A stretch of 64,000 nt of DNA from Pseudogymnoascus verrucosus (Eukaryota). Made by a program: the position numbers and the translations under genes. The notes below the pieces were generated by a model, which was not told the DNA's origin, did no database searches, and saw only the letters and a list, made by a program, of their open reading frames with translations. Positions 11,772-61,394 of the stretch are shown here, in pieces. Each line of letters begins with the position of its first letter. Position 1 is the first letter of the stretch. The stretch lies in assembly GCA_001662655.1 (NCBI GenBank), contig KV460280.1, one strand, 5' to 3'.

Positions 11772-12294
11772 GAGAGAAATAGATCCGCCTCTATTTCCGT
11801 CTCACGGCCAGAGCGTTCATCTCGAGGTGAAGGAGTGCTCGAAGTCCGCTTCCCCCCAAAATCAATTACATGCCCAGTGAAGATTATCGACAATACCACC
11901 TTCCGACATGCTTAGTTTGGCCGTGCCAAGTCCCCGTGGGCTGTCTACCATAGTGCATCCGCTTTGCGCTGTCTAACGCGAATAAGCTTCCCATATGCGC
12001 CAGCAGCTACTGTTTCTGCAAGTATGATCTTGGCAGATCCATAGGAAATACTAAATCTTGCCATTGAAATGTTTGACGGCCACGTGGAAGATTGTTGCGT
12101 TCTTCCAGGCGACAATTGCCTGTCGGAAGCTGGAACTCTCTGGGCTGGGTTAAGAGCCTATTCTGGCGCGCTGGGCTCTACGCGCCCGTTCTACGCGTCG
12201 TATTAGGTAAGCTCAGAGAGCCGACGGCATACTTCGCCCCCACGACTACCATCAGCACAGTCATCCCCAGTGCATTTGTTAGCAAGTAGCATCC
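11772..12294 (+). repeat. Left copy of a diverged direct repeat (blocks 11772-11904 and 12235-12294)
   Basis: Aligns by hand to 61156-61289 (109/134 identical, first 24 bp exact) and to 61332-61394. Confidence 0.9.
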
Positions 12295-12620
12295 GCTTTG
12301 GTAATATAGCCAGGCTTACTTAGCTAGCGTTGTCATTTCTAATGCAGTCATTTTCATTATTGTCAGATTTTAGTTCTGTCAGATTTAGGATTTTCCCAAA
12401 TATTATTTGCTTTTTCGAGGTTAATATAATGGCACAAGCTAAAGTATTGTGCGAGAAGTCTCCGCGACGGACGAGTGGAGGCCTTACGGTAAATCACCGT
12501 TGGTCATCACAGTATTGGGTTTCATGCCCAAGACTCGACTAGGTTGGGATTGCGATGATGACCTTGGCTATTTCAAGGGGGTTTGTATATTGCTGACTTA
12601 ACGAACATGCCAAATGGCAA

Positions 12621-13856
12621 TTAGTCCACTCGAAAGATTATTTTTGATGCCTTCATTTGATCAAATAAGTTATATCCTTCCACAACTTCATTTAAAGGCA
12701 TAACATTTTCTGTCATGAAGCTACTATGGTGTTAGCAATGCGCTAGCTTGTTCGTAGAAAGTGACTAACTCAAGTAAATGCTGGGATTCTAATAAACTCT
12801 GTAAAGCTTGCGGGAAGATGCCTTCACGAATGTATGTTAGAAAACGATGACACGATACCGCAGTAGCAATAGACACTCACTTCTGACAGGGCACCTGCCC
12901 ATTTGCATTCTCAAATTTTTCCCATATGCTTCATTTCCTGTCCACGGAATCTCTCCGTTGTGGACTCCAACACTAGATATGCTTCCCCAAGGTCGTAGCA
13001 GGTCGAACCCCATTCGTAACGCAGAACTCAGACCCACAACTTCTATAACAATGTCTGCCCCTCTACCGTTTGTTAACTCTTTTATGCGGCTGCTCAACCC
13101 TTCACGATTAGTCAAATAATTCCAACTCTCTGCCCCAAGTCTGTTTGCGAGCCCAAGCCTGTCTTCCACTCCATCAACAGCGAGTAAGTTCTTTGGCTTG
13201 TACTTCAAGGCGTTGACAAGGGCACAGAGTCCGACGGGTCCGCAGCCAATGACTACAACTGTGCTTTGCTGAATTGCCGCCTCACTCAATCCAGTGAAGG
13301 CATTGGTTGCCGCGAAGTAACCAGTTGGAAAAATATCAGCCATGAGGCAAAGCTTCAATTCATCGATTCCTGGCGGGGCCTTCACAACAGTACTGTCTGC
13401 TAAGGGCACTCTGACATATTCGGCCTGAGCGCCGTCAAGAGCGGGGCAGCCAAATAACATGCTCCTTTCACAACGAGAAGAGTATCCCTCGATGCAGTAG
13501 AAGCATTTCCCGCACGATACAGTGAAGGGAGCGACGATCAAATCGCCTTTCCTGAAGTTGCGAACGTCCGAGCCTAGCTGATCAACTACGCCGGTGAATT
13601 CGTGACCCATAATGAAGCCTGGCACAGTCGCTTGATGGCCCCGAAACACGTGAAGTTCGCTATTTAATAGTTAGTAACAGGCAGTGTAAACTACCAGCAA
13701 CAGTAGGAAGTTCAGTGCTTACCTGCCACATAACGCAGTATACTTAACCTTTACTATAATGTCTGTTGAGTTTTGGATCTGTGGTATAGGCCGAGTTTCG
13801 AGAGCAATAAGCTTTGGGCCCTTGAAAATTACTGCCTGCATAGTATCGTTTGCCAT
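12621..13856 (-). CDS. Zn-dependent medium-chain alcohol dehydrogenase (formaldehyde-dehydrogenase-like branch)
   Basis: MANDTMQAVIFKGP start, ALCG, GHEFTG, CGKCFYC..C structural Zn site, ADIFPTG, GCGPVG Rossmann motif. Confidence 0.92.
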
Positions 13857-14615
13857 AGTCTACTATTTGTTTTTTGACTGTTAAATTTTGCGTTTCTAAC
13901 GTTAAGGAATCACAAAGCAGAGGATGACAATTCTTAAACATCGCAAGAAACCCTAGTCATAACATTAGTTCATACCCCATTATGCGGAGTCCATGATTGG
14001 ACTAGTGTACAGAATTGTTCTAAGTGGTGAGACGGAATCTGTGTGGGAGAGAATTCGCCCTGAGATACTAGGGGCATGTTTAACGGCGCGCGGCGCAGCG
14101 ACACGTGTACGTGGATGATGCGGCACGTTGCTTGCTGTTCGGTTATGCTAAACCATCGGGGTTCGTGGCTGAAGTTCGCAGACACTAGGGACCCTAAATC
14201 CGTGAATCCGGGGAAGAGCCTGACCCATGGAAATCTTTGGCGGGGTTGGGACACTATGGCGAATATGTGCGGAGTTGTCTTAACGTCTTGCGCAACGCCT
14301 GATTTCCTGTGGAAGGGGAGAAAGTAGCGAGTAGACGGAATATCTGTCCCGCAAATGGGCCCGCGACCTAGTGGAGTCAACTGGGACGCCCACACACTCA
14401 GTGTACCCTGACGTGTGCACAACCTTGTGTAGTTGACGCTGCTCATGGAGAACGAAAGCAATGGGGCTTGAAGTTTTGTTGTGCTATTTTCTTTGCGAGC
14501 TTGCTCCGCGTAACTTGCCTCATCCCTAGCCTGCCTCTTGTATTTGTAACTCTGATACGGCAACATTGTAGTTCCTGTCTGTATCACACCCAGCATCTGA
14601 TATTTTACCGCACAA

Positions 14616-16440
14616 ATGCCTACGAAGTCTACGTATGTGATACCGAAATGACCTATCTTCACAGGTGAAAGAGCATGCTAACAAGATTGGAGAACAACAG
14701 ATTTGAAGATGTTAACATTCCCTTGGTGGACGTCTGGACGTTCTTGTTTGAGAAACCAAGAGACTTTCCCCAAGATAAGGGTGAGTTCCAACTTGACACA
14801 TTCCTGAGTTTTGCTGACGTACAGTCATCTACACTGACCCGGTGGTTCCAAGATCGTATAGCTATAGCGACGTGAAGACCGCCACGGCTGGCTTTGGAAA
14901 AGGTTTAAAGGAAGCATGGAACTGGAACAAAAACGATGTTCTTCTGCTATACACACCAAATAGTATCGACATTCCCATTATTACGTGGGGTACTCACTGG
15001 GCTGGCGGAGTTGTCTCACCTGCCAATCCAAATTACACGACAAACGAACTGGCCATTCAGTTAAGAGACTGTGGAGCGAAAGCCATAGTTACTCAGCGGG
15101 CATATTTAAAGAATGCACGTGCTGCGGCTCAGATTGCTGGCATTCAAGAAGATCATATTATTCTCATCGGTGAGAAAAATGATAGCAATTCGGTAATCAG
15201 ACACGTCACCGACATATGCGAGTTGGGGGTGTCCCAGGGTTCCTACCATCAACGAACTATACCAGAAAACCCGGAAGCAGACCTTGCATTTCTTGTGTAT
15301 AGTAGTGGGACAACAGGCCACCCAAAAGGTGTTATGTTATCCCATGTGAACATTGTTTCAAATATCTTGATGTTGAAGGCTGGAGAGGGAGTGAATCTCA
15401 GCTGGGTTGGCGGTCATGATAATAAGGGCGACCGGATTCTCGGCTTCCTGCCTTTCTATCATATCTACGGTAAGTGTTGATATTAGATCCATGGTTTCAA
15501 GGCTAAACTGTTATAAGGACTCACTTCGCTCGTTCATCAGGCAATCTACAACGGCTTGGAACTGATTGTCATGACCAAATATGATCTGGAAAAGTTTTGT
15601 TCCAATATCCAGGAATATAAGATCACCTTGGCCTACGTTGTCCCACCCGTCCTCCTCCAGCTTGCAAAGGATCCCAGTATCGATCGTTTTAACCTGAGTT
15701 CTTTGCGGATGATGAGCTCTGGTGCAGCTCCATTAACAAAAGAGCTAGTTGAGGCGGTTTACCAGAGGCTCAACGTTCCGATTAAGCAAGGCTACGGGCT
15801 CTCCGAGACATCTCCAACCACCCACTCACAGCCTTGGGACACCTGGCGCACGTTTGTTGGCTCCGCTGGTATACTTCTCGCCAATCAAAGCATTAAATAC
15901 ATGTCGGAGGATGGGGATGAGCTGCCAGCTGGCGAGACAGGAGAGCTTTGGATTAAAGGTCCAAATGTTTTTAGAGGCTATCTAAACAACCTAGAAGCTA
16001 CGCAAAACGCCTTGACAAGTGATGGCTACTTCAAAACTGGCGACGTGGGGCATGAGGACAAGCATGGAAACTTATTCATTACAGACCGCGTCAAAGAACT
16101 AATTAAGTATAAAGGTTTTCAAGTTCCACCAGCAGAGCTCGAAGGAAAATTGCTCGGCCACCCGGAGATTGAAGATGCTGCGGTCGTTGGCGTTTACAGA
16201 CCCGAACAAGCTACAGAGGTACCAATGGCGTATATTGTGCTATCAAAGGGTAGTCTCGGTGATGCAGCAAAAGAAAGACAAATCATGGAATGGCTAAGTG
16301 CGAGAGTGGCGAACCATAAGCGTCTGAGAGGTGGCATTGAATGGATCGATGAAGTGCCGAAAAGCTCCAGCGGGAAGATTCTGAGAAGAGTTTTGAGAGT
16401 TCGCGCCCAGAAGAAGAAGCTACCATCAGCAAAGTTGTGA
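14616..16440 (+). CDS. 4-coumarate/phenylacetate-CoA ligase-like adenylate-forming enzyme, PTS1 (-AKL)
   Basis: YSSGTTGHPKG, QGYGLSET, FKTGD, DRVKELIKYKGFQVPPAELE, PKSSSGKILRR. Ends SAKL*. Confidence 0.93.
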
Positions 16441-16688
16441 AACTTCCTTATAGAAAGCAATAGCAAAATGGGACTTGGCTATGCATATCTATGCTAAGCA
16501 TGTATCTATATATATCCTCAGCATGCTGTTCAGATGCCTACTTGTAGATATATGTATCTGTGCCAAACACCGATTTTTAGAATTCATTGCTATTAGCTTA
16601 CTAAAGTGCATAAATACATAGCTTGGAGGCTTTTGGAGCCGTTAATAGGTAAAATATTTCCCCGTCTATGCTCTGAGGTTCGTCGCGT

Positions 16689-18376
16689 CTACTTAACTAA
16701 TTCTTCTTGTAAATATTCAATGAAATCGACGTACTCTCTGTCTACATCGGATCCAGAACTAGACTGAGTTTTGATATCTATAACCTCGTCGAAGTCTGGC
16801 GTGGAAATATCCGTAATAGATTCAGGTGTTGATGTTGTAGTGGTAGTTGGATGTTCTCGTCGCGGGAACTGCCATTCATCGAGTGAAGAACAGAAAATAG
16901 GTTGCGATACCATTGTGAGTCGTGTGTCCCTTGACGAAAAGCTCGACGCAGGATGGTCGTTACTATGCCAGCAAAGCAGAAGCCTCTCTACGCATAGTAC
17001 GGCATCGGTCCTCATTCTGACAGCGCTAATGGTCTCGGGGTTTAATACGTTTTCATCCAGGTCAAAGTCCTCTAGGCTTAGCAGGTCAATGCGACAGTCA
17101 TCTATATTGATTATGAAACTTCTGCAAGAGTCGCCACTCAACCCTAAAGCCAAGATGCGGTCTCGGAGGAAGGCTGTCCACCAAATCCTGCGGCGAAGAT
17201 GTTTCTTTCGCAATGGTAGGCTTGATGAGGAGACATCGCAATTTAGTCCTAGACTCTTTGAGAATGATGTGGCGAGACTTAACCAGTGCCGTGCTTCGGT
17301 AGTAGAGGAGCAGAGGGTCATAAGAAGCAGCGATTGGATCACAGATAGTCGGTCGTCGCAGGTGTTGAAAGAATAGAGAAGCTGCCAGGCTTGTTAGAAA
17401 GACAGTCCATAATAAAAATGAAACGTAGCCTACAGGGTTTTTACTTACTGATACTCGGTTGAAGAATATTTTCTGGGCGGAGGAGCGACTTTGAAATCCC
17501 GCTTCCGTCAAAGCTTTTGTGCTCAAATAACCAAGTCCAGCATACAAAACTGCCTGGAACAACAAGAAGCTGATCTGTTTCTTGCCCGAATTTTCGAACG
17601 CAAAACTATCAATTCTCTGTTCGTCCAGCTTGTCGTCCATATATTTCACCATCAACAATAATTCTTCCAAGTCAAGTACAGGCATCTGGTTGTAGACGAA
17701 GTCGGCGTATGCTTTCAGCAGCTCTAGTTGCATGGCTGTACTTGGCAACGTAAAAGCATCATGCGAATGCAAGTATGACAGATCGGAGGAACGTAGGTTA
17801 CACGGAAAGGCAGTAAAAAATCTAGGCAAGGGAGGACTTGAGTAACTTGCATCAGATGCAAAACCCGTCCCTATGGAAAAGTCTGGCTGAATCGAAGAAG
17901 GTGAGGAAAGCTCTTCAATCAAGCCTGTCTGTATTTCGCCATTGCCGCTAACCTTTTCTATATCTTCAATATCTGTAGTTTCTTGCTCTCCTACTGTAGA
18001 ATCAGGTGAACCTGCTTCGCTTTTTGGGGGCGCCGATCTATACGAGAGTCATCAACAGTGTTCATTATGCCATGTACTCAACGCTTCAATGAAGGTCTTC
18101 CTCTTACCTTCGACCTGACGTCTTTTTCTTAAGTTCAATGCATGCCATTCCAAAATGGCTACAATTCGCACAGGGTGCTCCGTGCGGTACAATATTGCAC
18201 CTGACTTTCCTCGCTCGGCAAGCCGTGCATGCCCTGGGTGCCCTCTTCCCTCGTTTATAAAGAGGTAGAGGCAGTGACGATAATCCGCTTCTTTCTCCGT
18301 GAGAGAGGGTGTCAATTAAAGGCGGGCCTTGGTAGAAGTCGGACGTATAGGCATATTCGTTGGTATTGGTGTCCAT
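16689..18376 (-). CDS. Zn2Cys6 transcription factor (CTF1-beta/FarB-like)
   Basis: RAPRACTACRARKVRCNIVPHGAPCANCSHFGMAC binuclear cluster, YLHSHDAFTLP, and RRRIWWTAFLRDR fungal TF domain. Confidence 0.88.
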
Positions 18377-19117
18377 TGTGCTCCTTATTGTTCTGAGTAT
18401 ATTACGATATGAGAGGATGGTAGATGATATTTTTTAAAAGTAGCACAACACCAAAATTTTACAATATGATATGAATAAACAGAAGAGAAAGGAAGATTGG
18501 TGTTTACAATAATACCCCGCGGTCTACCCCTCTAAAAAGCCGGATTACTACGGCAGTATGCGTGCCGGGATTCAAGACTGCTCGGATATTTCCACTGTGC
18601 TGCATGGAGAATATGAGAGTATACCTAGACAGTTAGTGTAAAATGCCAAATTATCACAGGAGCCTAGCTTGATCAGCGACTATAATTTTTGTGGATTTTA
18701 GCACCAGCACTCTTCGAGTGACATGCTTGTCTTAGTGTCATTCATAGCGCGGAATTCATGTTCCGTTGCCATAATCCAACGACGCCCCACAAGATTATAG
18801 CCGGTGTCCTGTGTTCAAATCTCCACTGTTGTTCCGATGGAAAACCACTACGATACCAAAGGGTTTTGCAAGTCTGTACTTTCTAGTGATTTATTACATC
18901 TACAAAAAAACGTAGCATAGAGTTGTATATGAATGCATAGATAAGTTTATCAGACTAGGTATTTTTGCCGCGCTTATGATAAACTGCACCAAATAAGATC
19001 CGTGCTTTAGTTGTGTTTCTGACATGTTCAACATGATGAAAACGATTAGGTTGAGATAGTACAGATTTGCGTCTACTGACTTAATTTATAGCACTATTCT
19101 GATATGTCTCCCACAAC

Positions 19118-19965
19118 TTATTTCCCAATAGAATCCACAACGGTTCCATCAAGCGTACGTTTGACATTAGGATCATTGTACGTCAGTGGCTCAATGACAT
19201 AGTAATTTTCGGGCGCAGCTTCTATAACTTGTCCTTGCATCTTCTCATCAAAGAGCATCAATTCCACGACCTTTACAATCTGTGACAACTCAATCCATTC
19301 ATTGTCAAAAGCATCCCATTCATTCTTCTCGAACAGGTTGGTCCTGACGTTTCCAGGACACAGAGTGTTAACCCTAATGCCATCATTATCATAGAAGTGG
19401 CGAGAGATAGCCCTAGCAAATCCGACGACCCCGTGTTTTGCAGCAGTATATATAGGGCAGAACCGAACAGGGTATATGCCCGCGATGCTAGAGTTCAAAA
19501 TGAGACAGGCTTGTTCTCCCTTAGGGTTCTTACGAAAGTAATGCTGTGCAAGGTAGGCGGAATTGATGACGGATTTAAGATCTATATCGATGATGAAATC
19601 CAGCTCGGTTGGTGGACCTGAGATCGCATCCGTTTTTGCATAGAAGTTCTTTCGCTCTCCGACGCCTGCATTTGCAAAGACGAAGTTCAGACTATTATAT
19701 TTCCTGAACACCTGATCAAACGTGTTTGACAGGGATGCGTAGTTGTTGACATCCGTTTTGAAGAAGGAGCCCGACAGTTCTGCTGCTACCTCCTCGCCCC
19801 TTTGCACGTTCAGATCGGCGATGTTGACCGTCCAGCCTTTCTTTGAAAGAGACGTTGCAACTGCAAGTCCCATTCCAGATGCTGCCAAGGCGTCAGTCAT
19901 GATTAGGTACTACAGTCTTTGATGAGCTGCTTACCTCCCCCAGTAATCAGTGCGACGCCAGCCAT
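19118..19965 (-). CDS. Short-chain dehydrogenase/reductase (15-hydroxyprostaglandin dehydrogenase-like)
   Basis: Spliced ALITGGASGMG, FANAG, NSSIAG, catalytic YTAAK, LCPG. Confidence 0.92.
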
Positions 19966-20187
19966 GTTAGGGTATTGTGGTACGAGGCGGAAATGAATGA
20001 GCAAAAACGGATGTATTCTATAGAATATTTAGAACTTCGAGCAACTAATTTGTATCTAATTTTGACATATTTCAAACATATATGTGATTTATATAAATTC
20101 TATAGAGTACATTTATGTATTGCGTTGCAGTTTACCATGACTTACCCCATGGGGAGCGAAGCTACGCGAGGGGGGCAAATGGCGAAC

Positions 20188-20199
20188 TGAGTCATGCCA
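20188..20199 (-). promoter_or_regulatory. TGGCATGACTCA, candidate bZIP site in the SDR/EthD divergent promoter
   Basis: Matches TGGCnTGACTCA, which recurs in five consecutive promoters. AP-1/Gcn4 core TGACTCA. Confidence 0.7.
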
Positions 20200-20561
20200 A
20201 CCATGACTAATATCGTACTCGTGGCAGGCCCCAAGTTTGTTGCTTCCATCAACTAAGAATCTCGAGCCCTAAATTGAGTTAGCCAGGCAGGTCCCTTTAG
20301 GACAAGTGCGTAGCTCCACAGTGTCAACTTTGGATTTTTAGTAAGAGAGTCTACGCGAGGGGAAGTAGATACCCAACGCATGCATAGTATACCAGCTACC
20401 AAATGTTATTGCCCCACAGTCTCAAATGAATGATGTTTATATAACAGACTCATTTGCGTACTCCGCTCTTCTACCCCAAATAAAAAGAACCTCTTCCAGC
20501 TTTAGACAATTAGTATTTTTCAACGCATCTCCAACTTCAGCTCCGCAATCAAGCCGCAAAT

Positions 20562-21135
20562 ATGCCTTGGCAGAAGATTGACCACCAGTTTGCCAATGTT
20601 AAGCTCAGCTATGACTCTGAGCCGAATTTCCAGCCATGCATCAAAGTATCCGTATTTTTCAAAAAGATTGATTCCATCGACTATGATGCCTTCTTCGGCC
20701 ATTGGCAGACAGTCCATGCTGATCTAGCCATTGCGACACAAGCATTCAAAAATCACATTGTTCGATATGCTCAAGTACGTGTCCCCCAATCCTCGTTATT
20801 TAGCTGTGCCTGGCTCTTTCCACAAAATAGCCTTAAAATTCCCAATTCTCCATGACATACTAACGTCTATACAGCATCACCAAACGCCAGAAATGAAAGC
20901 GCGAGCTGCAAGTCTTGGAGAAAATGTTCTTGAATATGATGGCTGTGCGCAACTATGGGTCCGCACATGGGACGATTGGCTCGCGTTTTACAACAGCAAA
21001 GAGTATGCCGCGGCGCTGAGTGCAGATTGTGACAGATTCATGGCCTTGCCTATGACCTATATGGTTGGTTATGAGAACCTAATTGTTGGCGATGCGTCAA
21101 AGATCATGGGTGGTAAAGATGGCTTTGTTAGGTAG
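20562..21135 (+). CDS. EthD-domain (dimeric alpha/beta barrel) protein, 2 exons
   Basis: FFKK..DAFFGHWQTVHADL..VRYAQ|HHQT..YDGCAQLWV..EYAAALSADCDRFM, a typical EthD pattern. Confidence 0.85.
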
Positions 21136-21609
21136 ATAAGTGAAAAGATGAATTAAAACTACTAGCATCATGTTAGATAGTCATTGAGACAAGACGAGAA
21201 TTGCAAATCATATACACTGTCAAGGGGAATTCTTAATGTGACCATATTGCGCAAAATTAGGATTACATAGAGGCACGCAACAATGGCATTCTACCGTATC
21301 TGTGTGTAGATACCCAAATGAAGGATATATATACAACTTGTAGATTGTTAGAAGTACTTAGTATGTTTACTGTCAAAGATTGGACACACCTGCGGTTCAT
21401 TTATCATTGGCTTGATTTCAAAGAAATACGCAAGTTACAATTCTAAGAAGAGTGAGAGCAAAGAACCCATGAAAACGGCGGAGTTGAAGGTAATAGGTAG
21501 TATGGAATATTTTTCCTTCATAAAAAGCTAACATGCTTCAAATTACTTATGCCAAAACAGACAAAAAACCACTCTCGATCTCTTGTATATAATTTAGTCT
21601 TTCAAAACA

Positions 21610-23569
21610 CTATACTTTCTCAACCACTGTGACGGTCACCTTCTCCGTGAGATCATGGCTAGTGAGGTTCCCACTGGTAGGATCTCTGTTCTGACTGCCG
21701 ATTTTAGTAAAGATAAAGTCAATTTCTTCTAAAGTTTTGCCAGATGTCTACAAGAGGAAAGTTTGTTAGCAGGTTTTCAGAGTAAAATATATTATTAATA
21801 TTTTGACATACCTCGGGACATAAGAACCATACAAATGGAACGGCAGCAGCACATGATAAGGCCATCCAAAGCCAAATCTTCCAACCGACATTTTCAAGCG
21901 CAATACCGCCAGCAAATACGGTGATAAAAGAGAAGAGCCATTCCCCAAATGCACCAGCTGCAGCACCAGCATGGCGTAGTTTAAGTGGTGCAATCTAATA
22001 TGTAATGTTAGCATAGTATCTCTAAAAGACTCAGGTAAAATAAAAGCCTCACTTCAGGACCATAAAGCCAGCAAACACCAATCCAGCCATATCCAAAGAC
22101 GATATTGTAGACAAATATCGCAGCAACAGCTATCCACTGTGTACTAGCTGAGGGATTAGGCAGACTAATCATGGCCACAAAGATAGACATGCAGATGGTG
22201 AGCACAATGGCGGAATATAACATGACGTTTCTCCTCCCAACTTTCTCAATAGTGTAGACGAGAGGTATAGTCCCAGCAGCAAACAGGGTGTTCATAATTG
22301 CTGCTAATAGCTTCGTAAGAAAAGGTGATAAGCCGACTTGTGCAAAAATCACAGTACTATAGTACACAGACAGATTGATGCCTAGAGGGTCACGATTAGC
22401 AATTAATTCTTACTATAATGCTTATGAGGATGCGCTTACCCATCATCTGCTGGAGCGCAAGAATCATAAAAGAGATACGAATGCGTCGACCAGCACGAAG
22501 ATAGCTTCGGTCCCAGATCAAGTCGAGAATATTAAAGTCGCTATTATTATCCTCTTCTAACTTGATGCTAGAAATGATATCTTGCTTTGTGCTTTGGACA
22601 GCTGGGTCGTCTATGTCAGCATCGAAAAGACGACAAAGCACATCATCCCCTTTACTAATATATCCCTTGGCGTAATACCATCGAGGAGTGTCGGGCAGGA
22701 TGAACATGCCAACACTACCGATGATAGCAAAAATGATCTGAAATCCAATTGGTAGTCTCTATAATCCAAGTTAGTAATCAATGTTTACTTTACCTAGAGA
22801 GGTCCGCTTTACCCACGAGGCTTGATTGGTCATACTAGTAAAACCAAAATCAACCCAATATGCAAGTGCTGCACCCGCAACGAGGAAAACGCAGGTCACA
22901 GCGACTTGTGGCCCGCGCTCTTTAATCTCAGTGCTCATTTCGGCCTGATACGTCGGAACTGAACAAGAGATGAACTAATGACGAGAGTCAATATCGTGTT
23001 CTGTAGAGTGAGAAGAATATGAACGATCATACCCCAATGCCAAAGCCCTGAAATTCAATTAGCAAGCTTCATAGTAATACAGCACGCAAAACAACTTACG
23101 CATATTATGCGTGCAACAATGATCTGAGCAACTGACCACGATGACGCTTGAAGGCTAGCTCCGATAATGACGAGTAGGTTGCCCAGGAGGATACAGTTGC
23201 GGCGACCAAGGGGCATACCAACCATAGTAACCATCAAGGAGCAGACAGCAGCAGCAAGTGTGTAAGAAGATGCAATCATGGGAATGACATATGTCCCAGT
23301 TGGATACTAGAAATAAGCATTAGCAGACCAACGCAATGCTTTTAGAGTAAGCACCTACTCCCATTGCTCTATGAAATGGCTCAGTAGTCTGAACCCCTCC
23401 AAGGACACCTGCGTCGTAGCCATACATGCAGAAAGACTATAAGCAATTAGTGGCTAGATTCTCCCTCTTATGGGCAATTTGAAGATGCTTGCGCGAGGAG
23501 ACTTACAGTAGCACAGCAAGTTGCCATTATTCTTTTGAGGGTTTTACCTCTAATTTTTGATTCGAACAT
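21610..23569 (-). CDS. MFS sugar-porter family transporter, multi-exon
   Basis: GYDAGV, LGRRN, PDTPRW, ALQQMMGIN, VGRRN, WLYGPE, PETSGKTLEEID. Confidence 0.9.
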
Positions 23570-23831
23570 GATAGCAAAAAGGGGATAAATTCCAGGTGTT
23601 GTGCAAAACGAAGTTCTCACTCGTACAAATTTATGGAGGTGTCATTAAGAGCCTTTTTATATAGCAATAAGAAGTCTAGTACTGTTTCTTTTAATTTTAG
23701 CTTCTCATACCCCAGGTTTCCCCACGATGTTGTGAAGTTAGTGCAGTAGTTTAGAAACCCAGGATGTCGGCTACCGAATTTAAGCATCTGCAATGGCAAC
23801 TAATTTCAGGTATAGGCAACTGCGTCTATCA

Positions 23832-23843
23832 TGAGTCAGGCCA
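23832..23843 (-). promoter_or_regulatory. TGGCCTGACTCA, candidate bZIP site between the two sugar porters
   Basis: Matches TGGCnTGACTCA. Confidence 0.65.
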
Positions 23844-24303
23844 TACATAGTGGCGTCTCTAGATCTTGGCTGACCTTAGCACTATACTTTGTGTGGAGGC
23901 TAGCAAGTAAGTACCCCAGATTTTAGAATGTGGGGCATTCTCACGTCGGAATTACAGTCCCGAGCTGTCACTTGGCACAGCAAATATTTTCCATTAGTGT
24001 AGACATGACTAATGGCTAATTAGTAACGTCTAACCCCATTATATCCTAGAGTAAACTAGGTTACGATTAGCCCTACTGTTAAATTAGACCATAGCGTCAG
24101 TGCTCAAATGCCTAGCTATCGAATTTCGAGCTTGGCCGTCGCCATAAATAGCGTTTAGTAGTAGTGGAGATTAGTTGTGTGGGGTAATTTGTGACACTTA
24201 TAATGTTTTGGCTCCTTAGTTTAAAGAGCGGCTAAACATTACAATATCCCGCTTCTCACAACATTCTCGTTGCTTTTTTATTGTTAAGCATAAACAGAAA
24301 CCG

Positions 24304-26124
24304 ATGCATTTTCATTTACGCGGACGGCCTTTGGTGGTTGCAATTACCATTTCTTCAGGGAGTTGCTATCTGCTCTTTGGCTATGATCAGGGCGTTCTTG
24401 GTGGGCTAGTAACGCAGCCTAGCTTTTTGAATGCTATTGGCAATCCTAATGAAGGATATTTAGGCGCCATTGTGGCCCTGTATAACATTGGTTGTTTAGT
24501 AGGATGTGTCCTTTCTGCCTTGTATGGTAGTCGCTTTGGACGAAAAAGATCCATTATAGGGGGAAGTCTCATCATGGTCGTTGGTGCCATTTTGCAAGCG
24601 TCCACTTATGGCGCTGTTCAGCTCATCATTGGAAGGATAATTTCAGGTGTTGGTAATGGTACTGTTAGAATTCTTCCTCGCGCTGTTGTTGGTACATTTC
24701 TGATCTCGTTTAGGGATCAATACCTCTACTATCCCAATATATGTTTCAGAGATGGCAAAGAGTAACCGACGAGGAAGAATGATAGCAATACAGCTGTCGG
24801 TGGTTATTGTAGGTTGCAAAGTATCTGAGTACTTATTTTTGCTTATACTTGTCTAGTTTGGGACTGTGGTAGCTTATTGGCTTGACTATGGAACAGTCAA
24901 ACACATGACTGGAGAGGCAAGATCTCCCATTATTCTCCAGTTACTAAGAAGAGTTCTAACTTAAGCGGCGACAGATCGTATGGCGACTTCCCATTGCATT
25001 TCAGATTGTCTTTGCGCTCATCACATTGGCTACTATGCCATTTTTGCCCGAGACTCCAAGGTGGCTTTATAGCCAGGGCAAAGAAGCTGAGGCAATTCAA
25101 GTCCTTGCGAGATTAATGTCTTGTAGAGAAGACGATCCAAGAGTGCGAATGATCAAGGGTGAAATGAAGGCAGCCCTGGAAATCGAAACGATAGAAGAGC
25201 CTTTCCGGTGGCAGAACATTTTCTACGACCGTACAGATTTAAAGAACTACCGGCGGCTCGTTCTCTGTTTCTTGATTCAAATGATGCAACAATTCACTGG
25301 CATTAATGTCATTGCATTCTATGGTGCGTATATTTTTCCTTTTAAAGGAGCTCTCTTTAACTGTGCAAAGTGACAATCGTTCTCGAGGTTAATGTTGGCT
25401 TTGATCGTGAAACAGCCAGTCTTGTTGCCGGTTTTATCCAGATCGCTTTCTGGGCTGGTACATTCCCTCCTATGTGGTTGATTGATAGATATGGGCGACG
25501 ACCTATGTTACTCTGTGGTTCAATCGCTCTTACCACGACAATGGTAGTCTTTACCATAAGCATTGCTCTAGACACTCCAGCCACTAGCAAGCTTGCACTT
25601 GCCATGCTCCTATGCTATGAAATCTCGTTTGGGATGAGTTGGAACTCGATTCCATGGTTGCTTGCGCCCGAAATCACACCACTGCATTTGCGGCATATTG
25701 GTAGTGCTATTGGACCTTTCTCGGAGTGGATGTGGACATTTGTGAGTCTTCTGCGAGCTCAGTCTGACATCTTGCTAACTACCAAAGGTCATAGTGCTGA
25801 TTACACCCACTGCGATCCGCAACGCGGGGTGGAAGTTCTACATTCTCTTTTGTATTATGAACATGCTTTGCATCCCATTTATCTGGATCTGTCTACCTGA
25901 GGTATAGAGCCTCCAATATCTTTAATTAGGCCGTTGCTAATGCGATGTTATAGACAAATGGCAAGACTTTAGAGGAGATAGACTACGTATTCGCAAATGC
26001 TGAAGCTAAGGAGCGGATCAAATCACGTTTCGATGACGTTGTCGCAAATGCAAATAAGGGTGGTAGTAGGAGAAGTTCAGATTCTAACAAGATGACTACA
26101 CTTGAGGTCGAGAAGATAGTTTGA
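24304..26124 (+). CDS. MFS sugar-porter family transporter, multi-exon with one GC-AG intron
   Basis: FGYDQGV, FGRKR, GRIISG, PETPRW, QQFTGIN, YGRR, PETNGKTLEEID. Confidence 0.92.
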
Positions 26125-26614
26125 TTGTATCTACGGGCCTGCCATCATCGCCCTGGCTAGCTTGTCAACTCAAACAAGACTGTGTACTTCCTGTTTTCTC
26201 TGCTATATAATAGCATAGATTCAACACGTATGTCTAGTGTTATACATTTTTTTTGGTATAGATAGGCAACGAAAATATGAGAACTAAAATATTAAGGCAA
26301 AAAGTTTAATACAACAGTATCTAACTCCTCGAGTAATGCAGTTTAGTTTGCTATGAAGGTGTGCTTGGCTGAAGTTGGGCACTTAGTGACTGTGCTTCAG
26401 CAATCTGCTGACCGATTCGATCTCACTTATGACGTAATGGCTGCTGTCCAAGGAGATTTAAATCTGATCCGTATATCTTGACTAGTAAAGGGAGACTTCT
26501 TAAGAGGATTTGTTGCTGTGGAGAAAGCTGGCGTACCAATCGGTCATGCCATGGCTTGTTTATCTCCGCACCATTGTAATGGTGTGGGGCGTGACATCTG
26601 CGCCAATTGTGCCC

Positions 26615-26626
26615 TGAGTCAAGCCA
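26615..26626 (-). promoter_or_regulatory. TGGCTTGACTCA, candidate bZIP site upstream of the second ADH
   Basis: Matches TGGCnTGACTCA. 14/15 identical to ATGGCATGACTCAGG. Confidence 0.68.
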
Positions 26627-26942
26627 TAATTACATCGACTTGAAGCTTTAGAGTAAAATAAGATTGGCTAAGTTTTTATGGTATTACGGTAAAGCTGGTG
26701 GTAATATGTACGGAACCCTTGTTAACACTTACCTGACTCAAATTTATTTGATTGACATATTTCTATCCCGCCCTTCTTTCTTTAACTCTCCATATGAGCC
26801 ATAGGCCCCGAAATCTACTTTCTCTTAGGCTTTATTTATACCTGACACTTTCTTGTTGTTTCATATAGTTTAATTTCTTTAACACCATAAAGTTGAAGCA
26901 CCACAAAAAGTTGAACGATTGCCCCGATAGACCAAATCCAAA

Positions 26943-28373
26943 ATGCCTCACGAAGTTGGACATAACGGCATCATGAGGGCGGCTCAGTTCAACACTGTAA
27001 GAGCCATATTTTAGAGTTCTAGCGAAAAGAATATATATACTAATAACCATGTTTTGGGCACAACAGGTCACAAAGAAAATCACCGTTAATAGGATCCCAA
27101 TCCCATCATGCAAGCCCCATGAAATTCTGATCAAAAACAAATGTGCATCACTGTGCCATTCAGATCTGGTGAGTTGATTCACTTCCATAGAACAAAGCGA
27201 TGGGGCTTACTTAAGTCTAATTATAGATGCTCTTTTGGGATAGCACTGCTGAGCCTGCGACAACCGAAGATGTCACGATTGGCCACGAGAATACTGGCGT
27301 CGTAGTGGAAGTGGGCAGCAAGACAACGGGCTTCAGCGTCGGGGACAAAGTTGGTTGCCTTGGCTGCAGCTACGCGTGTTGTAGGTGACTCTATGTATAA
27401 GTGCACACGATAGTTACTCGAACTGACGACTGCTATAGACAAATGTGAAGCATGCAAGATCCACAATCTATTGTGTCAAGAGGGAACTGGTCTTATGCAC
27501 GGCTTCAGCACTGCTGGCCATTTTGCGGACTACTCGGTCTCGGATTACCGAAATGCCATGGTCCTGCCTGATGGTATTGATATGGTTTCTGCCGCACCAC
27601 TCTTCTGCGCTGGTGTTACAGGTGATAACTACCCGAAAATATAGTTTACCACGTTTAGGACTGATTAGGTGGATAGCATACCATGCAGTCGACCAGTGTG
27701 ACCTAGAGAAGGGCCAGTGGGTTGCAGTGATCGGATGTGGAGGCCTTGGGCATCTTGGTATGTTTTCTCCACGAGTGCTTTCTAGCAAGACCACAAAAAC
27801 TGATACTCATCCGTGACAGGTATTCAGTATGCGAAGGCAATGGGCTATAGAGTGGTTGCTATTGATATCTCTGATGCTCAACTATCAAACGCACGATCTC
27901 TAGGCGCTGATCTTATTTACAACTCAATGGTTGATAGTACATACCTGGAGAAAATCAAGGAGAAGACCCAAGGAGGCTGTCACGCTGCCATCGTTTTTAG
28001 TGCTGCTTTAGCAGCATATGAGCAAGCCCCAAAATGTTTACGGTAAGCCTCCCTCTAGAGTCCAGTCCACTATACGACAATTTCTCTCGGTATCTAATGC
28101 TTCTTCTGCAGCGTCAACGGCCTCATGATGATTGTAGGCATCCCACCCAAAAACCTGTCAATTAGCGCTTTAGATATCCTCCTTGGAAGATACAGGATCA
28201 AAGGCGCGAGCAGCGGAACACCAGATAGGATGAGCGCAGCAATTTATTTCAGCCACGATAACAAAATAAACCCACATATGACGACTTTCAAAGATTTGGA
28301 CGATATCCACGAGATCGTCGATTTGATGTCGAAAGGTCAAAATGCGGGACGCTTCGCAATAGTCTGGGAATAA
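26943..28373 (+). CDS. Zn-dependent alcohol dehydrogenase (Adh1/AdhP-like), multi-exon
   Basis: Spliced LCHSD, GHENTG, CYKCEAC..C, APLFCAGVT, GCGGLG, QYAKAMG. Confidence 0.9.
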
Positions 28374-28657
28374 GTCGTCGAATTTACAGCGTGGGAATAG
28401 TTCGGTGGCTACATGGCGTATATTTGGGATGGGACCGACGCCACGCCGCGTATAGATGTAGATGCAGATACTCAAAATAAATCTACCAGACCCGTTCTTC
28501 TAGACCCATTATTCCACGCTCGCGATGCTCCTAGTAGATGAGTCCAGTAGGAGTAGGGCGCTGAGAACAAGTAAGGCTGTACATCTGTAGTTCCTGCGAT
28601 AAGTAATTGAATTTGGCCCACAGAATCCCGTGAGTGGATGCAGTCTTGGCAGAGTTA

Positions 28658-28669
28658 TGGCATGACTCA
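28658..28669 (+). promoter_or_regulatory. TGGCATGACTCA, candidate bZIP site upstream of the second SDR
   Basis: The 15-mer ATGGCATGACTCAGG is identical to the copy at 30343. Confidence 0.7.
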
Positions 28670-28838
28670 GGTCCTCCAAACCCTCGAAACCCTCGACTGC
28701 AAATACTTAGCTTCTTAACTTACGGAGCCAACGGCATTGCTAATCCCGCCCCAGAGCACATAAACTCTAGCAGGGACTGTTTGACATCTGTTTTGGCAAG
28801 AAACAATTATCGAGGGAGATGCTATTATCGAAGTAGAC

Positions 28839-29909
28839 ATGGCTCAACGTTCCTCGTCTCGTGTCTGGCTTGTGACGGGCTGCTCGTCAGGCTTTGGGAG
28901 TCTTTTGGTTCCAGCCATAATCGCGCGTGGAGATAGAGTAATTGCTACCGCCCGGAGACCCTCTGCCTTGGCAGAACTTGACCTTCACAAGAACCTAACT
29001 ACGATGGAGCTGGATATTACATCGCCGCAACCTGTACTCGACAATATTGTGCGTAGTATCATTAGCAAGTTCGGACAAATCGACGTGCTGGTCAACAATG
29101 CGGGGTATGTTGCGCCAGGAGTCTGGGAAGAGATATCGTAAGTTCCTTCGCTGATTGATTTAACGTGCCAGTTACTGTGTCGTTGAATCAAGCGCATCCT
29201 ATCAGTTTTCCATGGAATAATAAGGTCACAGCTAACCGTTGAGGCTTGAACAGCCACGAAGAAACTACCGCACAGTTTAACACAAACGTTTTCGGGGCGC
29301 TGAATCTCACTCGAGCTGTGCTACCTACGATGCGAGAGCAAAAATCGGGCACTCTTGTGTTTATGAGCAGTATTGCGGCATGGCACGGCGTAGGCGCGGG
29401 GGGGCCGTATTCCAGCTCCAAATTTGCGTTAGAAGGTGCGTAAACTCTTCCTTCGCTGACAACATAATTATTACTAACTCGTAACTATAGGTGCCGTGGA
29501 GTGTTTAGAAAAGGAGACCGTCCATCTCGGCATCGAGACATTTCTGATGGTTCTTGGGCAGTTCAGAACTGACATATTGAATGCCGCACGGAAGCAAAAT
29601 AAAAAAGACAATCCAATAGAAGACTATGAGCGAATTTCAGAAGAACTGAGACACCGCCATCAGGAGACAAGTGGTAAGCAGCCGGGCGACCCAGAGCTGG
29701 CTGTCGAGCGGATACTAGACGTTGTCAGGCGCGAAGGCCCGCTAAAGAATTTCCCGAGATTGCCATTGCGCATTCCTCTTGGTTCGGATGCAGTTCAGGT
29801 GATGCAAGCAAAGTGTGAAGAGACATTAGGCATCCTTAAGTCGCTAGGAGACATAGCAAGGAGTACTGATTACCCAGATGCTGATGACATACCTACCTAC
29901 TTAAGATAA
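28839..29909 (+). CDS. Short-chain dehydrogenase/reductase (17beta-HSD-like), 3 exons
   Basis: [19 protein letters not shown], catalytic YSSSK, QPGDP. Confidence 0.92.
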
Positions 29910-30343
29910 TATACTTTTTAAGCAAGGAGATCCGTCGTTTGTAGCTTAATTTTCTAGAAGGGCAAAGCGGTTGCTTTTTTACATGTAACAAACCTAAGCG
30001 CCTTGAGAATTACTAGATAAAAAAATACAGAGCATGATCTCATTTGACTTTAGTGTTCGAGTTGTCTGATACTACCACAACGAAACACCAAGTAGTTACT
30101 TTTGTGTGCTTGTGCGCGTGAAGAAATCCTTTTAGAACTTCCCTGGGCCTACCCGAAAGATCGTCAAACTAAACACCCTGGAACTACTTGCTTCCATGCA
30201 CGGGAATTGGATTAATAGTGCTGACAAATAGGTGAGCAGAGTAATCTTTGACGATGCTACATGTGCATAAAATGCAACAGGGGTTTATTTGACCACCTGC
30301 TCAATTAGAGTGATTTGCGCTTTAGCTAATAAGAGTAAGCAAA

Positions 30344-30355
30344 TGGCATGACTCA
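30344..30355 (+). promoter_or_regulatory. TGGCATGACTCA, candidate bZIP site upstream of ALDH
   Basis: The 15-mer is identical to the copy at 28657. Confidence 0.7.
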
Positions 30356-30493
30356 GGCTACTAAAGCTAGGAATTTTAGAAGCAAGTCTATGATTTAAAA
30401 GAACTAAATACTAGGCCATATGCTGTAGAATCTTAATTACAATAACCCATTTTAATCGTTCTTACTACATTTCAAATTAGTAAATTTGTTACG

Positions 30494-32268: not shown

Positions 32269-32608
32269 AATAGATACCTCCAACTCATCACATAATGTCT
32301 GGGATATTTTAGATTCGTCTCATTTTTTCTGTATTAGCTTAGCATTATGGTAGCATTGGAAATAAGTTACTACCTTACATGTAACCTGCTCGTGCTAAAA
32401 TGGTTTGGCACGCCGCGCTAGAGTGTGTACAAATAGGCAGTTTGGGAGGTCTCCTCAAATCCCAATTGCCTCATTATGCAAGTTTGCTGCGACTTTCCAT
32501 CAGCATGTCCTTACGTACCCTGGAAATCCTAGATAGTGTTAGTGTCGTTAGTGCATGGGTTATGAAGGCGAGTGATGAAGGTTTCCTCTTTTTCTGTCTG
32601 TACATTGC

Positions 32609-32622
32609 CATTACTCATGCCT
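32609..32622 (-). promoter_or_regulatory. AGGCATGAGTAATG, Yap-type variant site upstream of the DUF1446 gene
   Basis: Identical 14-mer at 38102-38115. Contains the Yap1-type core TTACTCA. Confidence 0.62.
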
Positions 32623-33120
32623 AGTTTCCAAGCCAGGCGCACGGCCCACGTGGTCTATGCAACCCCTATGCCGATCTCCGCTTCACCAATTAATGCCATT
32701 AGGCACCTCAAAAAATCTGCCTCAACAATATGCCGAAGGCCGTTTGTCCACGCAGAGTGCATGGTCCAGCTTAAAACCTAATGCCAGGAGCACCAATCCC
32801 GTTGCCTTCCCACCATGGAAATTTAATCCCTACCGCCCTTCTAGGCATCATCATATGCGACTTGAGCGGCCTGGACCTGCACTTCCGCGGGGTATGGAAG
32901 ACTGGCGCCCTGGCACAACTGATTCAATACATACCAGTGCTAGAAAGCATGACCGCCACTCTCAAGGTTGGAGAAGCGGGATTGCAGTATGGAGGAAATG
33001 TGTTTGGAACGGCACCGGTCGGATTTTGCCCATCATATAATGCTCATTCCCCCCATATATTTGTCTCAATCCTGTAAATCGCACCCGACTTTCATAATAG
33101 TCCCATAAGTCTTCTACATT

Positions 33121-38101: not shown

Positions 38102-38115
38102 AGGCATGAGTAATG
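38102..38115 (+). promoter_or_regulatory. AGGCATGAGTAATG, Yap-type variant site upstream of OYE
   Basis: Identical to 32609-32622 on the reverse strand. A second CATGAGTAATG lies near 38366. Confidence 0.62.
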
Positions 38116-38534
38116 ACATTCCACCGTGCCGCCATCCACAGTGCGGGGTAGGCTAGGATTAAATCGGGCAGTAGCCGGCCAGTGACGTATGTGTAAAAGA
38201 TAAGCTTTTAAGAGTGCTCAGCTTTCAATGAGAGACGGTGTACAAATATTAGCCCCTAACGAAATGTCAGGGGAAACGGCTCGGTTGATAATCGTCGTGA
38301 CCAACTTTTCGCTTCGCGAGCCGGTCAGGACGATTATCCTTTGCTTACAAATTCAATCCACACGCCATGAGTAATGATAAAAGAAAAGAATTAGGGTAGT
38401 TGATAATGATTATTAATGAACATTGAAGTAATCTCAAGCCCCCTTCGATAAAGAGATGTCGACGAGTACGAGCACTTACCTTCTTTAAAAAGGACGTCCT
38501 GGCAAAAGGGTTATCGACATTCCACATCGCCGCC

Positions 38535-43436: not shown

Positions 43437-43713
43437 AGCTTCGAAAGGCTAGGATACACCAACGATTGTCAGAATACATCATTATTGGCTTCACTCAACT
43501 ATTATGAATGAACATAAATTGTCGTATTATCTATGCATGCCAGTTCCGAATTTTGCACTCCGACAAGTGTGCTGTTAGACACCAAGCAGTCTGTTACGAG
43601 GCATTTTAGCCAAGGTACCCCACGCTTCAGTGTACAACATGGGGTACAAGTAGTTCCTGTGTTCCTACTTAGTGCCAAGCTTTGAAAGGGGTAGCGGTGC
43701 TTCGAGGCACGGG

Positions 43714-43868
43714 TGGTAGCTTCGCGGCACTCCCCTGTCAGACAGCCGCAAAACCCAATTATCTGAATGAGCGGTTCCTCTCGTACTGAACTCAATTACC
43801 ATTGCGATGACGGTCATCAGTAGGGTAAAACTTATCTGTCTCACGACGGTCTAAACCCACCTCACGTT
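43714..43868 (-). pseudogene. Degenerate 28S (LSU) rRNA fragment including the sarcin-ricin loop
   Basis: Minus strand reads AACGTGAGgTGGGTTTAGACCGTCGTGAGACAG..TTTTACCCTACTGATGA..AGTACGAGAGGAAC..CATTCAGATAATTGG..GCCGCGAAGCTACCA, matching the conserved 3' part of LSU rRNA with substitutions. Confidence 0.92.
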
Positions 43869-44255
43869 ACTATTCCTTAATACCGACCTTAGCTGAGGCA
43901 TTTCCTCGACAGCTTGCGGCCCGGAGGCTCGCGGTCTCTTGATTTGGGGTGTGCATCACCTTTTTCCCAAACGCAGGTTCAATCATGGCTATAGTTACTA
44001 GTCTAGGCATAGTTTTAGCATGCTCATGGTAGATATAAATTATGTATGTAGCATACCGTTTTCCTTTTAATATGTATAAAACTTCCAGGTTAGCAAGTAT
44101 CCAGCAGACTTAATGTGCCAATAACAGAACAACGTAAATAAACGGCGAGTGAACAATGTAAAATCAGGGTCAAGATATATTTTGATTATTTGACTATATT
44201 TGTCTTGCTAAATGTAACTCAGTGGGTTTCTTGCTACCTTACGCGTTCTTCCCCC

Positions 44256-59226: not shown

Positions 59227-59358
59227 CGAAGAGGTTCGGACATCGTTAATAGTCTATAAGCACAAACTGTACCCTAATGTCGAAGGAGATCATGATATCA
59301 ATTGAGATGAAGTACCTATTTAATCATGACATGCTGTATGATAACCTTTTAGTCCTAA

Positions 59359-60954
59359 TTAATCCTGAGTATTCCCAATCGTCACGGTTTTCAAGTTCTG
59401 GTACTCCGCCAACCCATACCGACTCCCCTCTCTTCCTATGCCACTCTCTTTTATGCCTCCAAATGGTGCTTCCGCCGCGCTAATCAATCCCGTATTCACT
59501 CCAACCATGCCGACTTGCAGCTTCCCCGCTACTCTCATCACAGTCCCGATATCCTTGCTAAAGAAGTAACCTGCAAGGCCCAGCTCAGTATCATTAGCGA
59601 GCGCGAGAGCTTCGGCTTCGGTAGTGAAGGGGAAGATTGCCGCCAAAGGGCCGAAAGTCTCGTCGGTAGCCACGGCCATGCCTGGATGGCAGTTTGTGAT
59701 GACAGTAGGCTCGTAGAAGTACCCTTTGAGGTTTTCTGGCGCCTTGCCGCCGGTTCGGAGAATACCGCCTTTACTAATTGCGTCCTTGACATGAGTATCT
59801 ACCTTCTTGACCGCGCTAGCGTTGACGAGCGGACCTTGGCTGGTGTCTTCTGCGAGGCCAGAACCGAGCTTGAGTGCTTCAACTTTAGCCACAAGCTTTG
59901 TTGTGAATTCCTCGACGACGGAGGTGTGGATGAGGAGACGGTTTGCGCACTATCGAAAGTCAACTTGTTAATTCGTGGCAAGCTGCAGATACTCAAGAAC
60001 TCAAGTGAAAACTTACCACACAAGTCTGCCCTGAGGACCGAAATTTCGACACCATCGCACCCGCGACCGCTAATTCCAAATTCGCATCCTTAAACACAAT
60101 AAATGGCGCGTTACCTCCTAACTCCATGCTGACTCTTTTCATGGTCTCTGTTGCCATTCGTGCCAGCATCTTGCCCACGCCTGTGCTGCCCGTGAAACTG
60201 AGCTTCTTAACTTTAGGATGGGTTGCCAGCTGTAACGAGGCTTCTCTATCCTTAGTGGGAACGACGTGTAGACATGATCCAGGAATCCCCGCCTGCAATG
60301 CGAGCCTAGCAAGGGCTATGCAACTAAACGGCGTCTCACTAGGTGGCTTGATCACTACTGAGCACCCTGCCGCGATTGCAGGTGCGATCTTGCGGGTGAT
60401 CATAGCGGCGGGAAAGTTCCATGGGGTGATAATGCCACATACACCTACGGGCTCTTTAAATGTTAGGACGGTTGTGTCATGATAGGAAGAGGGTATTGTG
60501 TCGCCGTAGTTGCGAGTGGCTTCCTCAGCGAACCAGGCGATGAACGAGGTGGCATAAGTGATTTCGCCGCGAGCCTCAGCTATGGTCTTGCCATTTTCTA
60601 GGGATAGAATGGTTGCCACTGTCGTCGAATCAGTCTCATTGCCCGAACAGTGGTGCGTAGTATCTTACAATCTTCCAAGTTTGCAAGGATTAAATCGTTC
60701 CATTTACGTAGAATTACTCCTCGCTCTTTGGCAGTAGTTTTGGAATAAAACTCTTGATAGCCGTCGTGAGCTGACTCAATGGCATCAATAAAGTCTTGCT
60801 TGGTAAAGTCCGCACATTCACGAAGGACATCTCCTGTTGAGGGTTCGATTACGGGGAATGTCTTGCCTAAGGGGGCGAACTTCCAGCTTCCGCCGATGAG
60901 ACCTTGGGAATTGAAGAGCGACGGGTCGCGGAGATTGTAATTGTTAGACTCCAT
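59359..60954 (-). CDS. Succinate/glutarate-semialdehyde dehydrogenase (GabD/Uga2-like ALDH)
   Basis: ITPWNFPAAMITRK, FTGST, MELGGNAP, SKFRSSGQTCV|CANR, ETFGP, PFGGIKESG. Confidence 0.93.
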
Positions 60955-61155
60955 GGTGTGCTTTAGCTAGAGATATAGCTTTAATTAACAAGCAGGAGTT
61001 TAGGAACTTTGAGAGATAGAATGATGGACAATTTACAAGAGCAAATGAAATTTATTAATGACCATTTCATAGTATTGTCGCCGATACGATGGTCATAACG
61101 GAGAAGGCATGGGGAGTGTGGTGGGGCGAAGACGCTTCGGGAAACGATACCCCCG

Positions 61156-61394
61156 GAGAGAAATAGATCCGCCTCTATTCTCGTCTCTTGGCCAAAGCAT
61201 TGATTTCGAGCGCGAAGAAGGTTTCCGAGCCCCCTTCGCCCCAAAATCAATCATATGCCTAGTGAAGACTATCGAGAGTACCACCTTCCATACAGCGCGG
61301 CTGCTTAGAAGGGGTGGGCGACCCCACACGCCGCCTCCATCAATACCATTAGCACAGTCATCATCGGTGCATTTGTTATTAGCAAGCACCATCC
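61156..61394 (+). repeat. Right copy of the diverged direct repeat
   Basis: 61156-61289 aligns to 11772-11904 and 61332-61394 aligns to 12235-12294, in the same orientation. Confidence 0.9.

Follow-up and report, generated by a model that had tools for sequence, protein, structure and literature searches.

Introduction

Polymorphic fungal gene clusters, Starship elements and the duplications left at chromosome breaks are the described systems closest to the locus analysed here, a 49-kb block of catabolic genes bracketed by a diverged direct repeat on contig KV460280.1 of Pseudogymnoascus verrucosus (assembly GCA_001662655.1; the 64,000-nucleotide stretch analysed is hereafter the window, numbered from its first base). 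The polymorphic clusters of Aspergillus fumigatus, as presented in the available part of their description (Lind et al. 2017, PMC5711037), resemble it in having a conserved locus, variable content, divergent alleles and an adjacent unrelated nonribosomal peptide synthetase (NRPS)-like gene, but the cluster here is catabolic, has no transposable elements found at its borders and is bracketed by a long unique duplication. The Starships HEPHAESTUS and PEGASUS are likewise found in a filamentous ascomycete, with metabolic cargo of tens of kilobases and direct repeats at their edges. From the accessible sections of the source (PMC10104507), however, a Starship needs a captain gene, and its repeats are short, match the target and come with a terminal inverted repeat, whereas here the repeat measures hundreds of bases, no terminal inverted repeat or captain occurs in the window, and neither an empty site nor horizontal transfer was seen in the genomes compared. 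Finally, staggered-break duplications at Drosophila inversion breakpoints (Ranz et al. 2007, PMC1885836, available part) also consist of hundreds of unique bases at both ends (median 321 bp, up to ~1.9 kb) that have decayed to 80-90% identity (~88%); those duplications flank inversions and are inverted, whereas the copies here are direct, as insertion into a break would be expected to give.

Here we find that an ancient, non-random two-copy duplication brackets a real gene cluster. The duplicated stretch, a few hundred bases of non-coding DNA, most likely marks where a single ancient insertion took place and does not represent the ends of a mobile element, and we propose a mechanism for this below. 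A literature search that was thin on subscription papers returned no report of this locus or of any fungal cluster that has a unique repeat of such length at both ends.

Results

A direct repeat present in two copies brackets the cluster

The left copy of the repeat (11772-12297, non-coding, 52% GC) starts 106 bp upstream of the start codon of a minus-strand chitinase gene, and the right copy (61156-61397, 51% GC) lies 201 bp upstream of the start codon of a minus-strand aldehyde dehydrogenase gene (hereafter the end-ALDH), in the same orientation relative to its gene. Self-BLASTN of the window resolved two blocks that keep their order and orientation at the two sites, block 1 (11772-11904 against 61156-61289; 109 of 134 columns, 81.3%, E 5.9e-29) and block 2 (12222-12297 against 61319-61397; 79 columns, 75.9%, E 8.7e-8), and no other off-diagonal match in the 64 kb. 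Local scores of 141 and 63 compared with shuffle maxima of 23 and were reached in 0 of 200 shuffles each. The left unit spans ~526 bp and carries ~290-300 bp of extra sequence between the blocks, which are nearly joined in the right unit (242 bp). The original prediction, made from the letters alone, had aligned block 1 by hand with the same result and had placed about 290 bp of additional sequence in the left copy, as we find; for block 2 its order and orientation hold, while the match extends slightly beyond the predicted 12235-12294 and 61332-61394. The 24 identical bases with which the predicted alignment began are present but not special: a run of this length has P ~0.15 in simulated 81% alignments. 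As a candidate recombination core it was rejected, since it does not exceed chance (15% of such alignments). No similarity beyond the blocks and no terminal inverted repeats were detected (8 tests, p 0.22-0.64; inner and outer inverted-repeat tests p 0.22 and 0.59). The outer end of block 1 holds a short palindrome (11776-11797; 8-bp arms and a 6-base loop, with 6-bp arms in the right copy), and for block 1 in its entirety, folding exceeds the shuffle level in only one of the four strand/copy combinations.

Base composition changes at the left copy. GC content is 51.6% over 1-11771 and 46.2% over 12300-61155, the cumulative-GC maximum of the window falls at 12273, inside block 2 of the left copy, and both copies (51-52%) are like the left flank, their neighbours being at 39-47%. 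The turn to AT-rich sequence predicted near 12300 is therefore real, although the sharp step there is partly the 3' spacer of an alcohol dehydrogenase gene (39% GC). The flank-like GC of both copies and the position of the change point inside the left one count for insertion into host upstream DNA.

Copy number was assessed in the contigs of four of 23 sequencing runs (X1, X3, X4 and X5), compared with window positions 2001-22000 at 80% likeness; X1, possibly the source of the window, served as the positive control for sensitivity, and the right junction is seen in these runs only through 30-base loose contig ends. Runs and the named genomes considered below may overlap as strains, and their counts are not to be summed. 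In all four runs, a single additional contig showed a match to 11772-11826, the extra depth corresponded to one copy (ratio 0.94-1.01) and the loose ends of the extra contig were those of the right copy in the window. At the sensitivity used, the repeat is a two-copy sequence and not a high-copy dispersed family, the alternative that the original prediction had wished to see checked. A unique sequence thus occurs twice, exactly at both ends of the block, as in a breakpoint duplication, and the presence of only two copies in four of four runs argues that the bracketing is not chance: a second copy would land in the 1.7-kb spacer at the far end with a probability of ~5e-5 in a 33-Mb genome.

This figure also bears on the idea that the copies were placed by chance or are pieces left from the decay of a small gene or of a pair of upstream open reading frames, which we regard as highly improbable. 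One plus-strand frame does align at 13 of 16 residues, and a single codon position accounts for 13 of the 24 differences in block 1 (p 0.028, uncorrected for the three frames). That frame is broken by stops, however, and the repeat found no match as a protein in Pfam, the ESM Atlas or a phmmer search over 1.84 billion proteins (one overlapping frame), nor as an RNA family in Rfam.

The ends of the block are linked in relatives and appear old

Flank, left copy and cluster start were joined in all three relatives compared (X3, X4 and X5), and in X4 a single contig spanned the whole 20 kb with 258 differences. Among named genomes (a count that leaves out one row possibly equal to the window's own assembly), 12 list the chitinase, nine the end-ALDH and seven both, with 15 of 22 ALDH members listed, including all named ones. 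Both genes lie on one contig in four of these seven genomes and on separate small contigs in the other three. Their distance in locus tags, a proxy only for gene number, is 18 in VKM F-103, 16 in 23342-1-I1, 12 in P. australis and 11 in VKM F-4515, and the same interval here holds 22 genes. Three genomes (VKM F-3557, WSF 3629 and 05NY08) have the chitinase listed and the end-ALDH not listed.

Public gene models gave a further view of the left end. Several chitinase models are wrongly fused to upstream cluster genes (P0248, P0251 and P0253). The chimeric P. australis model P0251 reads from a dehydrogenase through the spacer and a translated block 2 into the chitinase, and has three bases that are shared with the right copy and missing from the left copy of the window; P0253 is the dehydrogenase fused to the chitinase, and P0248 covers block 1 and part of the ~300-bp left-only segment. 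By a rough simulation the P. australis spacer is ~25-30% diverged, about as much as, or more than, the 19-24% that separates the two copies.

Measured from the VKM F-103 proteins, genomes outside its close group retain 90.1-93.3% identity in the chitinase and 91.5-94.3% in the end-ALDH, and the trees of the two proteins have equal depth and broadly matching groups, the ALDH being the only cluster gene treed. Cargo more similar than host genes, as horizontal transfer would leave, was therefore not seen, the two being equally diverged within the genus. Together, the left junctions in relatives, the contig linkage and the matching tree depths indicate that the arrangement is old and vertically inherited. 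No empty site was found in the three relatives or in the four named genomes with linked end genes. The predicted allele joining the chitinase directly to the NRPS-like region thus failed to appear (the left junction was filled in three of three relatives, and the ends were linked in four of seven named genomes); every relative examined was syntenic, the very outcome that the original prediction had named as speaking against an island. Exact look-ups of predicted single-exon products found one of ten, and those of the enoyl-CoA hydratase gave no match.

The cluster varies from inside

The X3 contig parts from the window sequence at 18833; of the 30 bases in its loose end, 26 agree with 38402-38431, against 19 for the next best placement. 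This genome lacks 18834-38401 (19.6 kb, nine genes), and 18833 is joined to 38402 at a 3-bp GTT microhomology; the long repeat is not involved. The 19.6-kb module is a true presence/absence allele within the cluster, and as a case on which to examine recent gain or loss it is better suited than the long repeat. The cluster start of X3 (12706-18833) has 258 differences and 80 gaps in 6.1 kb (~4%), and its flank 61 differences in 5.3 kb (~1%); this divergent haplotype suggests old allelic variation or introgression. In VKM F-4519, an old yellow enzyme and the NRPS-like gene, 23 kb apart here, carry successive accession numbers on a contig of 11 kb, and the end-ALDH is not listed for this genome; a large part of the cluster's right half thus appears to be absent there. 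The ends of the block are fixed and its interior is fluid: it varies from inside (11 to 22 gene steps between its ends) and not as a unit. Related genes (with relatedness judged by families), a shared regulatory site and content that varies at one locus are the properties of a polymorphic metabolic cluster, and all are found here. The NRPS-like gene is patchy in the genus, so that the right flank is accessory too.

This fluidity could also mean that the block never moved as a unit: the upstream region would have been duplicated first, by a tandem event or two successive inversions, and modules would then have accreted at a rearrangement hotspot. The varying number of gene steps, the module absent from X3, the short VKM F-4519 contig, a ribosomal DNA fragment within the cluster and the accessory region past the right copy would all fit such a history. 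Nevertheless, a dehydrogenase adjoins the chitinase wherever this can be checked (P0251, P0253 and the four runs), the gene resembling succinate-semialdehyde dehydrogenase (SSADH) lies on the chitinase contig in four named genomes, and a Zn2Cys6-type site is common to both halves, as one original cluster predicts. We consider this history rather unlikely.

The window lacks mobility genes and element hallmarks

Among 176 frames of at least 85 aa and 142 shorter spacer frames of the window, no recombinase, transposase or reverse transcriptase family matched above its curated cut-off, in agreement with the original prediction that no captain or transposase gene is visible. A weak integrase-core match (26835-27206, E 0.004, below cut-off) was rejected as it falls on the strand opposite exon 1 of the second alcohol dehydrogenase. 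A Pfam search of the same 318 frames, which end at base 64000, gave no match to DUF3435 or any other tyrosine recombinase, the captain type, and the first gene inside each repeat copy is a dehydrogenase and not a captain. Nor does the repeat, at 134 + 79 bp, take the form of a short target-matching repeat with a terminal inverted repeat. Judged by the window, the block is not a Starship, and it bears no sign of a mobile element. Its size, its metabolic cargo, the lower third-codon-position GC in many cluster exons (0.38-0.62, against 0.62-0.73 in four flank exons) and the accessory genes continuing rightwards could still recall a degenerate Starship, its captain lost or beyond the window and the long repeat an incidental cargo or by-product. 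Besides the missing captain, vertical inheritance at one locus argues against this, as do known Starship edges, given in the available part of PMC10104507 as short target matches such as TTAC, and we hold it to be very unlikely.

Smaller elements leave marks of their own. TG...CA ends, terminal inverted repeats and short target duplications characterise long terminal repeat (LTR) and composite elements, and Helitrons or Helentrons end in a 3' hairpin with CTRR (or a T-run) behind it, their families including a RepHel gene. At the ends of the repeat we found no TG...CA, no terminal inverted repeats and no short target duplication; a terminal hairpin is present, but the shared sequence stops four bases later with no shared CTRR, and RepHel had no match in the window. 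The composite index of repeat-induced point mutation was at most 0.04 in all 64 one-kb bins, and a 22-mer of the repeat was absent from the JGI metagenome contigs scanned, a chitinase scan of which was likewise empty. These negatives, together with two copies only per genome in four of four runs at 80% likeness (from which older copies would escape), make it unlikely that the copies descend from a family of small non-autonomous elements or solo LTRs, now extinct or diverged past detection, and that ectopic recombination or a composite element placed the cluster. Such an origin would account for the sharp shared start with its palindrome and for a length of 0.25-0.5 kb, which fits an LTR or a miniature inverted-repeat transposable element (MITE), and transposable elements often border polymorphic fungal clusters (PMC5711037, available part).

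Gene content of the locus

The window is fungal, its chitinase, NRPS-like and ALDH exons being closest to Pseudogymnoascus proteins (93-97%). The left flank holds a WKF-domain gene, a proteasome subunit, one unlabelled gene and the secreted GH18 chitinase with chitin-binding (CBM18) modules (7490-11665, minus strand, 3' end approximate). Twelve other named Pseudogymnoascus genomes have this chitinase listed. Its conservation inside the genus is 90-99%, the next matches (at most 60%) being spread over several fungal classes. Two tandem 51-bp copies (84% identity, 487-598) lie directly downstream of the WKF gene, and the unlabelled gene (5306-6158) has a second, ~90% similar copy in X1 and X5 and none in X3 or X4 among the matches listed.

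Between the repeat copies we count 22 genes, one fewer than originally predicted: two zinc alcohol dehydrogenases, two short-chain dehydrogenases/reductases (SDRs), two aldehyde dehydrogenases, two acyl-CoA ligases, EthD, AtuA, an old yellow enzyme, an enoyl-CoA hydratase, a member of the nitronate monooxygenase (NMO) family, a thiolase-like protein, a flavin monooxygenase, a lactonase-like protein, three transporters and three regulators. The left end (12770-18433) comprises a zinc alcohol dehydrogenase (minus strand), an acyl-CoA ligase (plus) and a Zn2Cys6 regulator (minus). The internal 19.6-kb segment (18834-38401) carries an SDR, EthD, two sugar-type transporters, a zinc alcohol dehydrogenase, an SDR, an aldehyde dehydrogenase, AtuA and a bZIP-DUF3425 regulator. 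The right part (38535-60954) contains the old yellow enzyme, the enoyl-CoA hydratase, the NMO-family protein, a major facilitator superfamily (MFS) transporter, a PRK08257-like thiolase, an acyl-CoA ligase, the flavin (Baeyer-Villiger-type) monooxygenase, the metallo-beta-lactamase-fold lactonase-like protein (a label based on one weak match), a fungal transcription factor and the SSADH-like aldehyde dehydrogenase.

From its enzyme families, the cluster would serve ring-opening and beta-oxidation of cyclic or terpenoid ketones and alcohols. As described in the available parts of the sources, the monoterpene ring-opening routes of Rhodococcus erythropolis DCL14 (carveol, PMC4097962) and Grosmannia clavigera (limonene use with Baeyer-Villiger monooxygenases, PMC8120277) are alike, by family only, in their enzyme classes: alcohol dehydrogenase, ene-reductase, Baeyer-Villiger-type monooxygenase, lactonase-like hydrolase, aldehyde dehydrogenase, CoA ligase, hydratase and thiolase, with an AtuA-family protein in addition.

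Five palindromic Zn2Cys6-type sites of the form CGGRA-N6-TNCCG (14336, 18750, 23947, 46355 and 54411; 14336-54426 overall) lie in cluster spacers of both halves. The pattern, picked after seeing the sites, gave 10 strand matches against 0.59 expected and was equalled in 0 of 100 shuffles; no site falls within either repeat copy or between 24000 and 46300. A variant site occurs at 51778, and the palindromes are a candidate site for a cluster Zn2Cys6 regulator. A second motif, ATGACTCAG (three sites), was not enriched (5 of 100 shuffles).

A diverged fragment of eukaryotic large-subunit ribosomal RNA (43690-43880, minus strand; Rfam RF02543, 59.7 bits over 43710-43796) occupies part of the spacer that separates the NMO-family gene from the MFS transporter; it may be filler DNA, taken up when a break within the cluster was repaired. 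Past the right copy, the NRPS-like gene with adenylation, thiolation and thioesterase domains (62650-64000, plus strand) runs off the window; close relatives occur in only two other named genomes, and the next match (66%) is from other genera, the nearest one outside the genus being annotated as a microperfuranone synthase. A perfect 40-bp inverted repeat with a 15-base spacer (62252-62346), ~300 bp upstream of this gene, resembles a foldback or MITE-like relic.

Discussion

The explanation we favour, at no better than even confidence, is an ancient, fixed, one-time insertion that placed the catabolic core cluster in the upstream region of the chitinase, left a breakpoint duplication of ~0.5 kb and was followed by internal remodelling. 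The core cluster would have entered in an ancestor of several Pseudogymnoascus lineages, and the copies would be one stretch of unique host-like DNA, the chitinase upstream sequence, duplicated once at insertion. Host break repair would be the likely agent, a staggered break or repair synthesis placing ~0.5 kb on both sides of the insert; a circular fragment carrying the same sequence and crossing over once would produce an equal end state. Afterwards the block would have been inherited with the chitinase, the copies drifting to ~80% and one of them losing or gaining ~300 bp, and the cluster would have gained and lost internal modules at short microhomologies, the long repeat not being used. 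A copy lies immediately beyond each terminal gene of the cluster, as this explanation would have it; arrival of the block as a unit, the mode of repair and the identity of the original copy are the parts of it that we infer. The old insertion scar of the original prediction thus survives as the best reading, given two copies and no recombinase, and its mobile or recent 49-kb island does not.

Several observations weigh against this explanation. No empty site was found in any genome compared, so that insertion as a unit stays a proposal, and the NRPS-like gene, being patchy, need not be the ancestral right-hand neighbour. The copy count rests on a 55-bp local match at a likeness of at least 80% in unitigs, which older family members would escape. 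VKM F-3808 is placed differently in the chitinase and ALDH trees, and the Drosophila breakpoint duplications, in the available text of PMC1885836, are inverted and not direct. Finally, block 2 is better kept than the adjacent spacer relative to P. australis (11 of 14 against 23 of 50 translated positions, p 0.04), and on this small sample the repeat may owe its persistence to a role as promoter and not be a passive scar.

A bolder reading is that the block exemplifies cluster movement without a recombinase in filamentous fungi, whole pathways integrating (and possibly excising) in circular form by host recombination across promoter homology of a few hundred bases. Both the chitinase and the last gene of the cluster would then be served by the duplicated promoter, explaining why it is still recognisable, and one-copy empty-site alleles would be expected in VKM F-3557, WSF 3629 and 05NY08. 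We consider this quite unlikely.

Returning to the one-time insertion, what the locus offers is no evidence for an active or new mobile element; it shows internal remodelling of a cluster between ends that remain fixed. If the insertion did occur as proposed, the duplication would both date and delimit the arrival of a whole catabolic cluster by way of host repair, with no Starship involved, and would represent a rarely documented route for the relocation of fungal gene clusters.

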